Shown here piece after piece: positions 24,541 through 43,123 of a stretch of 43,465 nucleotides of DNA; the stretch's first letter is position 1, and every line of letters starts with the position of its first letter. Location: IMG/VR virus record IMGVR_UViG_2563366823_000003. The stretch is one strand, 5' to 3'. The translations under genes and the position numbers were made by a program. Origin of the DNA: a virus (taxonomy: Duplodnaviria; Heunggongvirae; Uroviricota; Caudoviricetes). Below the pieces are notes generated by a model. That model made no database searches and was not told the origin of the DNA. It was given only the letters and a program-made list of their open reading frames with translations.

Positions 24541-24876
24541 TTACTCCTTATGGGCACCGAACTTGTTACCGATGACCCTCATTGCTGCACCACGAATAGC
24601 ATCAACACCAATCAGCCCCACCCCACCACCAATGGCAACAGAAAGTGATTTAGGCCATCCGACATACTCAAGCGCGGATGCAAAGGTCAGCGTCAGGGCA
24701 CCACAGAGCAAAATCTCAAGCGTTTTTCGTTTCCAGCCCCCATCACCGCCAAAATAGGCGATGCGCAAACCAGCCATAACGATCGACATAATCACTGCGC
24801 CCAGCGGAGTGTCTCCACGCCACCAGCTCTGAAACAACTCCAGCCAGTCCGGCCAGGTATTTGGGTTATGAGGCAT
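24541..24876 (-). CDS. holin
   Basis: Small membrane protein upstream of the endolysin with hydrophobic segments; two in-frame starts (24900 and 24876). Confidence 0.6.
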   Translation of the reverse strand: MPHNPNTWPDWLELFQSWWRGDTPLGAVIMSIVMAGLRIAYFGGDGGWKRKTLEILLCGALTLTFASALEYVGWPKSLSVAIGGGVGLIGVDAIRGAAMRVIGNKFGAHKE

Positions 24877-25240
24877 TTCATCATCTCTCACCTCGCACAT
24901 ATCGCGGGTGCAAATTGAGGGAATAAAAAATCCCCGAATATTCCAGGAGCGGAAACGGGGAAAGGCGTTGCACTAAATGGGCCTGTCTGCGGCCTTAAAT
25001 AAAAAACCCCGGCAAATGCCGAGGTCAGTTAATCGTTGCCGCTGTGAGTGCCGCGGCGCACTATCTCTTTATCAGGCCACTTACGCGTTAAACCGGGTGC
25101 CAACCGTAACTCAGTGATGCTTTACGCTTCCTCTCCCTCACTACGTCGCCATGGGAGCCCGACCAGATTAACGCTGTCGTCGCGTTGCCAATATTTGGCA
25201 TCCAATGCATTCTTTTTATTTAGCTATTTCATTTTTCTAT

Positions 25241-25276
25241 CCGTCAGAAACAACAAAACCCGCTCAATGGCGGGTT
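25241..25276 (-). terminator. tR'-like terminator downstream of Q
   Basis: 7-bp stem aacccgc/gcgggtt followed on the minus strand by TTTTGTTGTTTCTG, ~90 nt downstream of the Q stop. Confidence 0.5.
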
Positions 25277-25359
25277 CTGGTAAAGTTCATGCGCTTGGTT
25301 CGCCTCGCGATACAGCTTTGCGAAGCATACCGGAATTGAAGCAGTTTATGCGTAAAAAA

Positions 25360-25902
25360 TCAAGCTATTTTTTGAGCAAATGATTCTCGCATGGGAATAT
25401 ATAGGGCATACTCAGCAACAGCCAACCAATTAGCAATTCGCTTTTCGCATGTGCTAAAACACCACTCAGGATGTGCATCATTTAGCAATTCAGCCATTTT
25501 GCGCTTAGCCATCCCCCGTCCTTCATACCGTTGCCGGAGGACACTAATCAATCCAGGATGCTCTGCCAGCACCTCACTTATGACTCTATCAATACATAAC
25601 GCCTCTGCATCAGTACAATGCGCCAGCCAGGTCTTTTGCTTGCCATTGATCATCTCTCGCAAAAACGCTTCCAGCTCAGGTTTCTCTATTCCCGCTTTTT
25701 TCATCCTGCGCAGGGCTTCATTGACGGCTGTTTTCGTCAATTTTTGGGATGCCAGCAACTGGTTAAACATATTTCCCGTCTTACCGCCGCCAATATACGA
25801 CCAGCGCCCCCACATGCGCAGTTTTCCCTGAATCCAGACACTTTCCAGCGTGGTGAGACGAAGGTGTTCCCCGCTTTTGCCTGTATTTGTTGGGTAAATC
25901 AT
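25360..25902 (-). CDS. late-gene antiterminator Q
   Basis: ORF upstream of the lysis cassette; ATG 25902 with AAGGAAGG upstream and ATGA overlap with the preceding gene; family from recall. Confidence 0.6.
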   Translation of the reverse strand: MIYPTNTGKSGEHLRLTTLESVWIQGKLRMWGRWSYIGGGKTGNMFNQLLASQKLTKTAVNEALRRMKKAGIEKPELEAFLREMINGKQKTWLAHCTDAEALCIDRVISEVLAEHPGLISVLRQRYEGRGMAKRKMAELLNDAHPEWCFSTCEKRIANWLAVAEYALYIPMRESFAQKIA

Positions 25903-26189
25903 AAATAACCTTCCTTTCTCCAGATTTCTTGTGTGCGAAAAACACCTTCTGCATGCATCAGGCGTAATTCTTCTTTGGTGTAATCGCTGTTTTTTACCCG
26001 CCCGTCGATTAAATCGTGGCATGAGCTACAGGCAATCGCTGCCTGCATATCGTGTGGTTTTGTCGCTGTTCCGCACGTCCCCGCCAGCCTGTAATGCGCC
26101 AGCACAGATGTTTCGGGATTGTGATTGCAGTAGCCAGGAATTCTGACGGTGCACATCTGCCCCCGCGCCGCTTTACGTAAATCCACCAT
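25899..26189 (-). CDS. YbcO-like protein (DUF1364), putative Zn-binding nuclease
   Basis: 96 aa; MVDLRKAARG...RIPGYCNHNPETSVLAH...KPHDMQAAIACSSCHD resembles recalled DLP12 YbcO. Confidence 0.6.
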   Translation of the reverse strand: MVDLRKAARGQMCTVRIPGYCNHNPETSVLAHYRLAGTCGTATKPHDMQAAIACSSCHDLIDGRVKNSDYTKEELRLMHAEGVFRTQEIWRKEGYL

Positions 26190-27379: not shown

Positions 27380-27535
27380 TTACTCCTCAGGTTCGTAAGC
27401 TGTGAAGACAGCGACCTCCGTCTGGCCGGTTCGGATTCGTACCTCGCAGAGGTCTTTCCTCGTTACCAGTGCCGTCACTATGACGGTTAAACAGATGACG
27501 ATCAGGGCGATTAACATCGCCTTTTGCTGCTTCAT
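27380..27535 (-). CDS. hokD: Hok/Gef-family membrane toxin (type I toxin-antitoxin)
   Basis: 51 aa MKQQKAMLIALIVICLTVIVTALVTRKDLCEVRIRTGQTEVAVFTAYEPEE matches recalled HokD/RelF; hairpin-rich 3' UTR and in-frame upstream extension. Confidence 0.8.
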   Translation of the reverse strand: MKQQKAMLIALIVICLTVIVTALVTRKDLCEVRIRTGQTEVAVFTAYEPEE

Positions 27536-27677
27536 AGCCTGCTTCTCCTTGCCTTTCGGCACGTAAGAGGCTAACCTACATGTGCAAAGCATGAAATTGG
27601 CCTCAGATTAATGTTAAGCGTCTTGCCGGACGCGTAATGTTAACTGGGGCTTTTCTCTATCTGCCTTTGGTGTTCGT

Positions 27678-27717
27678 GCCCGAGGCAGATAGCCTCAAGC
27701 ACCCGCCGTGATTCTAC
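27678..27717. repeat. left copy of a ~40-bp imperfect direct repeat flanking the AT-rich cargo island
   Basis: gcccgaggcagatagcctcaagcacccgccgtgattctac versus gcctgagacagacaacctcaagcacccgcagcaattctac at 29698-29737, ~82% identity. Confidence 0.6.
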
Positions 27718-36171: not shown

Positions 36172-36571
36172 ATTCATTTCCTTACTGGTTGTGTGAGAAC
36201 TCCAGTAAAGATACCACCAAAGCCCGGAGGTGGTGAAATAAAACCGGGCACAACACGAAGGCGCATTTCTGGTATCCATAAAGAGTCGGTCTTGTCTGTT
36301 AAATTTAAATGGTGGGAGTGCGCCTCCGGTTGTAAATAACGACATTGCTTTGTGTAGTCTTTGGCGGCATCAGTTCTACTCCGTGGCTGCCCTGCCGCCC
36401 CTTTTTAAAGTGAATTTTGTGATGCGGTGAATGCGGCTAAGCGCACGCGGAACAGTTAAAAGCATCAGTGTTATGGGTGGATTATCCGGCGTTAATTGTT
36501 AACTGGTTAACGTCACCTGGAGGCACCAGGCACCGCATCGACAAAATTCATTTGTAAAAATGGAGATAATT

Positions 36572-40913: not shown

Positions 40914-41120
40914 ATGACAAAAATTATGAGATATGACGATGTTAAACCATGTCCGTTTTGTGGTTGTCCATCTGTTACGGTGAAAGCAATTTCAGGATAT
41001 TACCGGGCAAAATGCAACGGATGCGAATCCCGAACTGGCTATGGTGGAAGTGAAAAAGAAGCGCTCGAAAGATGGAATAAACGAACCACTGAAAATATTA
41101 ATGGAGGCGTTCATGTATAA
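40914..41120 (+). CDS. ralR: restriction alleviation protein Lar/RalR
   Basis: MTKIMRYDDVKPCPFCGCPSVTVKAISGYYRAKCNGCESRTGYGGSEKEALERWNKRT matches recalled Lar. Confidence 0.7.
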   Translation: MTKIMRYDDVKPCPFCGCPSVTVKAISGYYRAKCNGCESRTGYGGSEKEALERWNKRTTENINGGVHV

Positions 41121-41301
41121 AATTACTGCTACAATTGAAAAGGAAGGTGGCACTCCTACTAACTGGACAAGATATTCAAAATCTAAACTAACGAAATCAG
41201 AATGCGAAAAAATGCTCTCAGGGAAAAAAGAAGCAGGCGTTTCCAGAGAGCAGAAAGTAAAACTGATAAATTTTAATTGCGAGAAACTTCTGTCATCGTG
41301 A
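41113..41301 (+). CDS. small hypothetical protein (62 aa)
   Basis: ATG 41113 overlapping the lar stop; the track start upstream is non-ATG. Confidence 0.4.
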   Translation: MYKITATIEKEGGTPTNWTRYSKSKLTKSECEKMLSGKKEAGVSREQKVKLINFNCEKLLSS

Positions 41302-42731: not shown

Positions 42732-42863
42732 TTTTAACGTAAATGGATTGTTAAATGCATTTTGGTTGTGATATAACCAAAAAAGACCGGAATACAGAAA
42801 TTCGAGTAAATTTCGGGGAATTTCGGGGGAGACGTTTGCAACTGATTGATTTTAAATACAATT

Positions 42864-42898
42864 AAAAAAAGACCGAATACGATTCCTGTATTCGGTCC
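42864..42898. repeat. attR: right copy of the att core inside the sdsR terminator stem
   Basis: aaaaaaagaccgaatacgattcctgtattcggtcc matches 1068-1098. Confidence 0.7.
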
Positions 42899-42966
42899 AG
42901 GGAAATGGCTCTTGGGAGAGAGCCGTGCGCTAAAAGTTGGCATTAATGCAGGCTTAGTTGCCTTGC
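42864..42966 (-). ncRNA. sdsR: SdsR (RyeB) small RNA; antisense RyeA/SraC overlaps on the plus strand
   Basis: Minus-strand gcaaggcaactaagcctgcattaatgccaacttttagcgcacggctctctcccaagagccatttccctggaccgaatacaggaatcgtattcggtcttttttt matches recalled SdsR incl. terminator. Confidence 0.8.
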
Positions 42967-43123
42967 TCTTTAAGAATAGATGACGACGCCAGGTTTTCCA
43001 GTTTGCGTGCAAAATGGTCAATAAAAAGCGTGGTGGTCATCAGCTTAAATGTTAAAAACCGCCCGTTCTGGTGAAAGAACTGAGGCGGTTTTTTATTGGA
43101 AATCAAAAGGCTATTTTAGGTAA

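Follow-up and report, generated by a model that had tools for sequence, protein, structure and literature searches.

A putative Q-linked late switch and a mobile cassette with a predicted double-pseudoknot RNA share the Q-to-holin gap of a lambdoid Escherichia coli prophage

Analysing the minus-strand gap between a gene for a Q-like antiterminator and the holin gene S of a lambdoid prophage, we found a three-module mosaic that consists of a putative Q-linked late switch (about 25363-25242), a cassette (25244-24998) and an upstream segment of the holin. The window, that is, the whole stretch analysed, is 43,465 nucleotides (nt) of IMG/VR virus record IMGVR_UViG_2563366823_000003 and is a mosaic lambdoid prophage of E. 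coli, with an end adjoining the ryeA/ryeB locus. Between its boundaries the cassette carries a minimal open reading frame (mini-ORF), a structured RNA predicted to hold two pseudoknots, a hairpin and a terminator. We favor, with a probability of roughly 0.55, the reading that the late switch is followed by a cassette RNA acting in cis, as a leader at the entry to the operon.

The module boundaries are drawn by the distribution of each part among other genomes. With a 601-nt query spanning the gap we obtained matches in several phages and in 1,896 of the 5,426 complete E. coli genomes. Nearly all of these matches are confined to query positions 1-206, a stretch that takes in the 3' end of Q and everything up to the final base of the tail of the first terminator, T1. 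The remaining 344 nt have matches in only 38 of the 5,426 genomes (0.7%). The segment that starts where T1 ends and runs through the second terminator, T2 (query segment 3-247, window 25242-24998), recurs alone in three other settings: behind an unrelated Q protein of 123 amino acids (aa) (L004), on 49-kb plasmids (L005, core only) and downstream of LexA-like cI repressors (L006 and L007, core only). It is unannotated in L004, L005, L006 and L007, and when the cassette is aligned with these four out-of-context copies, a core of ~110 nt is near-identical. The last ~100 nt of the gap, with a third terminator-like site, T3, travel with the holin in other genomes.

This layout changes how the terminators of the gap are to be read. 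The Q-like ORF ends with TGA at 25362-25360, the genes flanking the gap all lie on the minus strand, and the holin is followed by a GH104-type endolysin and then by spanin-like ORFs. An earlier note had placed two minus-strand terminators, the second of them weaker, in about 460 nt of non-coding DNA between Q and the holin. The distance measures 459-483 nt, depending on the holin start (24876, PGAP-type, versus 24900, longest ORF), and our terminator scan returned both hairpins within 3 nt of the earlier coordinates, each with a z score of about -4.2. T1 has a 10-base-pair (bp) stem (25279-25254, 6 GC) and the tail UUGUUUCUGA to about 25244, and folds alone at -16.1 kcal/mol (z = -4.3); T2 has a 9-bp stem (25026-25005, 6 GC) and the tail UUUUUAUUUAA, and folds alone at -15.4 kcal/mol (z = -4.2). 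Both thus combine a stable GC-rich hairpin with an adjoining U tract, as an intrinsic terminator does, and T2 proved not to be the weaker one, being equally stable and having the better U tract. T3 was rejected as a terminator, its -6.8 kcal/mol (z = -0.3) not being significant. Over 3 kb, both strands, the scan returned 8 sites, compared with 3.2 +/- 1.7 in shuffled sequences, and 3 of the 8 are on the minus strand within the 460-nt gap. The proposal that the gap is a pR'/tR' module suits T1, where a relative of Q is followed by a conserved promoter-like block and then the terminator, but not T2, which ends a separate 247-nt mobile cassette: since the homology of the Q module stops at the T1 tail and the cassette has a different distribution, T2 is not part of the Q module. 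Nor is the gap a plain non-coding spacer, as the stretch between T1 and T2 holds a conserved structured RNA and a mini-ORF.

Comparison of aligned family members identifies the core of this stretch as an RNA of ~125 nt with two pseudoknots backed by compensatory changes. In hairpin P1, AACGC (25186-25182) pairs with GCGUU (25174-25170) around the loop GACGACA, with variants ACAC/GUGU and CUAC/GUAG in relatives; CGAC of this loop (25179-25176) pairs with GUCG (25163-25160) in the pseudoknot PK1, which is 100% paired (pair types CG 37, AU 6). The second pseudoknot is of the H type. Its helix S1 joins CUCCC (25157-25153) to GGGAG (25137-25133), with pair types UA 30, CG 10 and UG 3, and its helix S2 joins AGUGA (25142-25138) to UCACU (25117-25113), with compensatory changes in 4 of 5 pairs (ACCAG/CUGG, ACUCG/CGAGU). 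The fold also contains a 2-bp mini-helix, into which some relatives insert a 15-nt hairpin. Toward the 3' end, the tail UUAACGC (25091-25085) can pair with GCGUUAA, competing with P1; pairing in this alternative helix reaches 92.9%, all of its changes being one-sided, and the strand GCGUU(AA), having two alternative AACGC partners, is a possible switch. A long-range closing helix between the 3' arm of P0 and ...AGCC, only 66% paired, was not adopted.

Pair statistics were taken from MAFFT alignments not fitted to the structure and were set against slid-partner and shuffle controls. In alignment A3, 93.9% of cells are paired, versus 32-44% with partners slid, and 10 pairs are changed on both sides; in alignment A5, which includes the members found with a second pattern, the values are 95.5% versus 34-47% and 9 pairs. 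RNAalifold on the full alignment returned PK1 and S1 only, and we placed the other helices manually and checked them by counting pairs. The many G-U pairs establish that the transcribed strand is the strand of Q and S.

These data bear on the simplest account of the gap, in which all of it is one pR'/tR' unit whose tandem terminators would tighten the switch, and the conserved stretch is either a hitch-hiking spacer or a 40-aa ORF at 25210-25088. Among the first five sequences compared, four substitutions did fall at third codon positions of the 40-aa frame. Yet its AUG is absent in most relatives, and indels of 1 and 2 nt together with rebuilt S2 arms break the frame; we rejected the ORF as coding on the missing AUG and the core indels of 1, 2 and 15 nt. 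The covariation includes G-U pairs, a neutral spacer would not stay conserved in about ten genera and in differing gene contexts, and T1 and T2 differ in evolutionary distribution. We regard this account as highly improbable.

The RNA family extends well beyond E. coli. An exact core 17-mer (GGCGACGTAGTGAGGGA) is present in 65 IMG/VR contigs, and a longer, partly degenerate pattern containing it (GGCGACGTAGTGAGGGARAGG) occurs in 13 species-representative genomes, of Buttiauxella, Pectobacterium, Photorhabdus, Erwinia, Enterobacter, Citrobacter, Pantoea, Symbiopectobacterium and an unclassified Erwiniaceae bacterium, and including a record with the title Martelella alba, a name from outside the Enterobacterales. 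An independent pattern for the 5' half found 108 stretches, among them ~38 new members with changed cores and 4 chance matches. In total, the family comprises more than 100 prophage contigs of Enterobacterales, and the 13 genomes represent about ten genera of that order. Among 50,697 phage records, blastn with a relative as the query found the element in one isolated phage only, Serratia phage vB_SspS_OS31, and the window's cassette as the query gave no match. The family profile matches the window once (25188-25064, E = 2e-34) and never matches twice in one locus. Our literature searches for a leader with a mini-ORF and pseudoknots in lambdoid phages gave nothing relevant.

The 4,227 models of Rfam 15 gave no gathering-score match in the gap of the window, where the matches were at chance level (E 0.5-8) and none lay over the core, nor did they match the element in five relatives at gathering or permissive thresholds. 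ARAGORN found no tRNA or tmRNA in the window. Elsewhere in the window, Rfam gathering-score matches are RalA (41119-41297, minus), DicF (36349-36400, plus), SdsR/RyeA (42860-43004, both strands) and sok (27530-27704, minus), the last adjoining a hok-like ORF (27380-27592).

The core might instead be a self-cleaving ribozyme, or a site of RNase processing, that severs the leader (the nut complex or the tR' hairpin) from the lytic message. Stretches of ~17 nt in unpaired loops of the pseudoknotted fold are nearly invariant across genera, and small ribozymes are often associated with phages. The position between the loading site of an antiterminator and the first gene is, moreover, that of the processing site of the lambda N leader, which RNase III severs. 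Set against this, no ribozyme model of Rfam 15 matches at E values up to 5-10, the helix topology is, by inspection, unlike the layouts of hepatitis delta virus-like or pistol ribozymes, and the mini-ORF would be left without a role, so that we consider a ribozyme or processing site quite improbable.

The mini-ORF is itself a family trait. A Shine-Dalgarno sequence followed by AUG, at most three codons and UAA or UAG stands just upstream of the fold in 83 of 95 distinct members, a pattern found in 4% of random 100-nt windows of the same loci. The encoded peptides are MK (31), MKQ (23), MKH (9), M alone (7) and others, and every stop is UAA or UAG. The AUG keeps its place with respect to the first helix, whereas the stop is found at varying positions. 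We conclude, again from sequence comparison, that the ribosome entry site at the foot of the fold is under selection.

Upstream of the cassette, the late switch has its own pattern of conservation. Across 58 variants from the Q 3' end to T1, a block of ~65 nt 3' of the Q stop is nearly fixed while the coding part and the terminator vary. The hexamer TATGCT is invariant and always lies 5 nt after the candidate -10 (28 of 28 variants of the block), and an intrinsic terminator follows 60-90 nt past the block in all 28, built from at least three different hairpin sequences. A second Q allele keeps the arrangement (TTGCAA, 17-nt spacer, TGcTTGAAT, 5-nt gap, TATGCT) with an unrelated spacer sequence. 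Past the terminator, relatives diverge completely into different inserts, one of them a tRNA. The block also recurs in other prophages behind a different gene, for an ORF6N-type protein. In nine loci (L040, L046, L050, L057, L060, L064, L066, L068 and L070), the block, T1 and the RNA cassette stand together behind such an ORF6N-type, antirepressor-like gene, ~1 kb downstream of Q, an arrangement that suggests recombination at the shared noncoding block.

Published Q cassettes run from a promoter through a sigma-dependent pause element and a terminator to the late genes (10.1101/651190), and by its order of elements the block with T1 appears to match this layout. By analogy, we infer a promoter, a pause and Q dependence, with a start site at about 25328 and a short leader RNA of ~83 nt, from about 25328 to about 25246; the fold of 25328-25244 has -28.4 kcal/mol (z = -2.3). 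The only promoter that the consensus scan reported, TTGGCT-18-TATATT inside Q (25425-25396), was set aside, as its key positions vary and it is absent where the block recurs behind the other gene. Inside the promoter block, TGCTTC occurs as a direct repeat on the minus strand (25343-25338 and 25327-25322), in the second Q allele as TGCTTG/TGCTCG. This repeat may be a candidate Q binding element, given that the site bound by Q21 consists of two 8-bp subsites in direct repeat. In the 99%-identical locus L001, PGAP calls a plus-strand hypothetical protein of 62 aa (2568-2756, corresponding to about 25195-25383 of the window) across the Q stop, the promoter block, T1 and the mini-ORF; it overlaps T1, and we rejected it, a false gene call on regulatory RNA sequence being the most likely explanation.

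The protein encoded upstream is, by profile comparison, a relative of the Q21-type antiterminators. It matches DUF1133 (PF06576) at 2e-108 and just passes PF06530, the Q21/933W family (26.2 bits, cut-off 26). As a single sequence it has Q21 as its best PDB match, a weak one, and profile A4, built from five DUF1133 and three classical Q proteins of related loci, matches the Q21 structures 6P18/6JNX at E = 4.4e-8, a match that speaks for relatedness, not for activity. In a survey of Stx phages, too, DUF1133 proteins were classed as Q on the basis of HHpred (PMC8136144). In the A4 alignment, DUF1133 Q proteins differ from classical Q proteins of 115-127 aa by an N-terminal extension, an insertion of ~30-45 residues after WGxW and additional residues at the C terminus, and constitute a separate, very common branch of Q, on which our literature searches found no experimental study. 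Upstream, a YbcO-family nuclease gene (25899-26189) shares its last 4 nt (25899-25902, minus) with the start of the Q-like gene, an arrangement that suggests translational coupling. The longest-ORF start, at 26022, is probably not used.

Among the 90 family members with enough flank, 40 have a boxA (GCUCUUUA/GCUCUUAA) within 260 nt upstream of the element, and 29 have an intrinsic terminator directly before its Shine-Dalgarno sequence. In 18 of these 29 late-context members a terminator also follows the RNA, giving the T1-RNA-T2 layout of the window, while 33 of the 40 boxA-context members are without a terminator and run straight into the ribosome binding site of the next gene. The element, mostly co-oriented with the flanking genes, lies either between a Q gene of either type and the lysis genes or opens the early-left operon, with a cI-like repressor encoded 350-450 nt upstream. 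Judging by these neighborhoods, it is always just past the loading point of an antitermination factor, at an operon head. The next gene, often one for an Arg-rich N-like protein, has its Shine-Dalgarno sequence directly against a conserved 3' hairpin in many early-left members. Eight loci (L052, L022, L044, L038, L053, L065, L030 and L222) have a second conserved segment, (A)GUGG-AUUUA-CCCUGYC...GRCAGG-CAUAAAA-CCACU, ~90-180 nt after the core; it ends at the Shine-Dalgarno sequence of the first early-left gene, often Arg-rich and N-like, and is absent from the window.

The niche between Q and the holin is also one in which small RNA (sRNA) genes are carried, namely PasA/C/D, STnc100, AgvB and AsxR, and PasA is processed from a longer transcript and ends at a terminator (bioRxiv 10.64898/2026.05.13.724894). 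The cassette could likewise be the gene for a trans-acting sRNA, a sponge or a ribosome-associated RNA, cut from the readthrough transcript in lytic growth and ended by T2, as would suit a unit that moves bounded by terminators and that has a terminator at its end in 18 of 29 late contexts. The lack of a terminator in 33 of 40 boxA contexts does not fit this role, and neither does the absence of a visible promoter of its own, T1 lying ~10 nt upstream of the Shine-Dalgarno sequence. The conserved part, being base-paired and compact, exposes no obvious single-stranded seed, and an efficient mini-ORF is unusual in sRNAs. We therefore think an sRNA gene unlikely, though it is the least unlikely of the alternatives.

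Phage OS31 brings another possibility into focus. There, cI and a terminator are followed by three operator repeats with a promoter, a boxA, a Shine-Dalgarno sequence with AUG AAG CAG UAA, the core, the conserved 3' hairpin and the Shine-Dalgarno sequence of the first gene. The repeats (three of AAUAAAUACCU within 3150-3500 of L222, with a TTTACA-17-TAATCT promoter) lie downstream of cI and are OL/pL-like; the boxA (GCUCUUUAACAA) is a perfect rrn-type one, 6 nt before the Shine-Dalgarno sequence of the mini-ORF. A boxA next to a ribosome binding site is known from the suhB leader, which the OS31 arrangement resembles. OS31 belongs to the Hendrixvirinae, the subfamily of HK022, and its element, between the pL operators/boxA and the first early-left gene, has the position of putL. 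With the element at the start of long phage operons, its nascent fold might bind RNA polymerase and make it resistant to terminators with no dedicated protein, as put does through the beta' zinc-binding domain of the polymerase. However, the family profile has no nhmmer match in the HK022 genome at E values up to 10, and put is an element of ~70 nt with two stem-loops (PMC9378689), against a double pseudoknot of 125 nt here. Put has no mini-ORF, antitermination is already provided for by the N-like genes, boxA/boxB and Q found alongside the element, and the terminator kept right behind it in late contexts would be pointless if termination were abolished. A put-like action is, on balance, improbable.

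We favor the cis-acting leader because the core is constant while its 3' parts change (a terminator in late contexts, a hairpin abutting the ribosome binding site in early ones), because there is no room for a promoter of its own, because many copies have no terminator and because one strand of the fold has two alternative partners. In this mechanism, a weak extended -10 promoter overlapping the Q stop would start transcription near 25328, and sigma70, retained by TATGCT at the start site, would halt the polymerase in a pause during which the DUF1133 Q protein could load. Without Q, an RNA of ~83 nt would end at T1, and the cassette would be transcribed only by polymerase that has passed T1. 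A ribosome would then load on the two-codon mini-ORF at the foot of the fold, and the folded RNA would set the fate of the lytic message by governing whether it ends at T2, how it is processed or how stable it is, or how the next gene is translated. In every model, T2 would be a second barrier for polymerase leaking through T1. We propose only tentatively, and at less than even odds, that the family is a new class of phage regulatory RNA in which a ribosome-loading mini-ORF and a double-pseudoknot fold gate entry to the early-left and late operons of temperate Enterobacterales phages. Possible modes for such a class, which no known riboswitch, put, nut or sRNA family covers, are sensing of translation capacity or of a small molecule, self-cleavage, or direct action on the polymerase or ribosome.

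Several points weigh against this mechanism. Riboswitches do not usually have a mini-ORF upstream of the fold, inspection found no antiterminator helix competing with T2, and P1 and the alternative helix are mutually exclusive, the data favoring neither. The counts of both-sided changes were matched by 0 of 500 shuffles for A3 and by 0-1 of 500 over A3 and A5, but this control can be beaten by related sequences without structure, and the slid control is the stronger one. T2 is missing from 11 of the 29 late-context members. The subgroup of the window has the Shine-Dalgarno sequence GACGGAU versus GGAGGAU in relatives and has lost the small hairpin Pa (GCGG-AUAGA-CCGC), replaced by UAAAAAGAAUGC; compared with its relatives, the copy in the window has a weakened upstream part and an intact core, and it may be decaying or working differently. 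In the late switch, the -10 TTCAAT is without the key A at position 2 (-11 A), and because of this the consensus promoter scan did not report TTGATT-17-TGcTTCAAT.

Table 1. Features of the Q-to-holin gap and its flanking genes, in window coordinates and in the order of transcription.
Feature	Position	Strand	Basis and details
Q-like antiterminator gene, DUF1133 family, 180 aa by PGAP-type start	25360..25902	-	Pfam, profile search, annotation of L001
Candidate late promoter, pR'-like	25335..25363	-	-35 TTGATT 25363-25358, 17-nt spacer, extended -10 TGcTTCAAT 25343-25335; found by reading the sequence
TATGCT, -10-like hexamer at about -1 to +5, candidate sigma-dependent pause element	25324..25329	-	Conservation; role by analogy
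Predicted leader-RNA hairpin GCUUCGC...GCGAGGC	25302..25326	-	Minimum-energy fold
T1, intrinsic terminator, candidate tR'	25242..25279	-	Terminator scan and folding
Mobile cassette (mini-ORF, structured RNA, hairpin P6, T2), 247 nt	24998..25244	-	Distribution apart from the Q module
Mini-ORF AUG AAA UAG	25224..25232	-	Shine-Dalgarno sequence reduced to GGA 25242-25240
Hairpin P0 (GAUGCC...GGCA)	25186..25202	-	Arms covary: GCCUG/CAGGC, CACCC/GGGUG, ACCUG/CAGGU
Hairpin P1 and pseudoknot PK1	25158..25186	-	Covariation
H-type pseudoknot S1/S2, nearly invariant loop AUGGCGACGU	25113..25157	-	Covariation
Hairpin P5 (25109-25088) and 3' tail	25075..25109	-	Stems vary, pairing kept
Hairpin P6 (GCCGC...GCGGC)	25038..25057	-	Variants in relatives ACCGC/GCGGU, GCUGC/GCGGC
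T2, intrinsic terminator, 3' end of cassette	24995..25026	-	Terminator scan and folding
T3, weak hairpin and U run, part of holin upstream segment	24922..24948	-	Terminator scan (24948-24932)
Holin S, lambda family, first late (lysis) gene	24541..24876	-	Pfam PF05106 at 3e-27; annotation of the 99%-identical locus L001

The late switch of lambdoid phages is a classic regulatory system, and the DUF1133 branch of Q is widespread within it. About one in three complete E. coli genomes carries the Q module, and coordinates for its candidate promoter, pause site and terminator are now given. The RNA family has been missed by standard annotation and is absent from Rfam, although it is conserved from Escherichia to Photorhabdus. 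If the RNA regulates lysis or early genes, it would add a new layer of control to prophage induction, bearing on lysis timing, toxin or moron expression and phage engineering, and its fold would be new among RNAs and tied to the ribosome in an unusual way.

Compared with known systems, module 1 appears from its sequence to be a new member of the known Q-cassette kind, and module 2 has no match among the described families queried. Like the lambdoid Q cassettes of phage 21 and 933W, the window has a relative of the Q21 family directly upstream, a promoter-like block with a second -10-like hexamer at the predicted start site, a terminator 60-90 nt on, an insert hot spot and then the holin, endolysin and spanin genes. 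The short terminated transcript of such cassettes is 6S RNA in lambda and StxS in Stx phages, and the predicted counterpart in the window has ~83 nt. Unlike them, the window has a Q protein of the DUF1133 branch, with ~45 extra residues, and a poor -10 (TTCAAT, with an upstream TG).

HK022 put shares with the cassette the nature of a phage RNA element at an operon head that acts, if at all, on its own transcript. The family described here is larger, pseudoknotted, preceded by a mini-ORF and often followed by a terminator; it coexists with N/nut and Q and has no sequence relation to put. Leaders of riboswitches and attenuators likewise have a conserved, compact, covarying fold upstream of variable 3' parts, a strand with alternative partners and a short leader ORF, mgtL/mgtA being one such leader. 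In the window family, by contrast, the ORF lies upstream of the fold and has 1-3 codons, and there is no clear competition between terminator and antiterminator and no ligand candidate.

The Pas, STnc100, AgvB and AsxR sRNAs occupy the same Q-to-holin niche and, as in the late-operon copies of the element, have a 3' terminator; the Rfam models of STnc100, AgvB and AsxR have no match in the window. Pas sRNAs are reported in 1,362 genomes, mostly of pathogenic E. coli and Shigella (bioRxiv 10.64898/2026.05.13.724894). The element of the window, in contrast, is carried by 0.7% of the complete E. coli genomes, and its hosts extend across the Enterobacterales. Identity with the Pas sRNAs is judged unlikely from their far higher frequency in E. 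coli; from this group of sRNAs as a whole, the element is distinguished by its frequency, its host range and the negative Rfam results. Finally, the bar minigenes of lambda are two-codon ORFs with a Shine-Dalgarno sequence that are not known to be linked to a structured RNA. The mini-ORF resembles them in having a strong ribosome binding site, an AUG, one sense codon and a stop within a lambdoid transcript; the bar minigenes lie elsewhere in the genome, whereas the window family keeps the position of its AUG relative to the fold.

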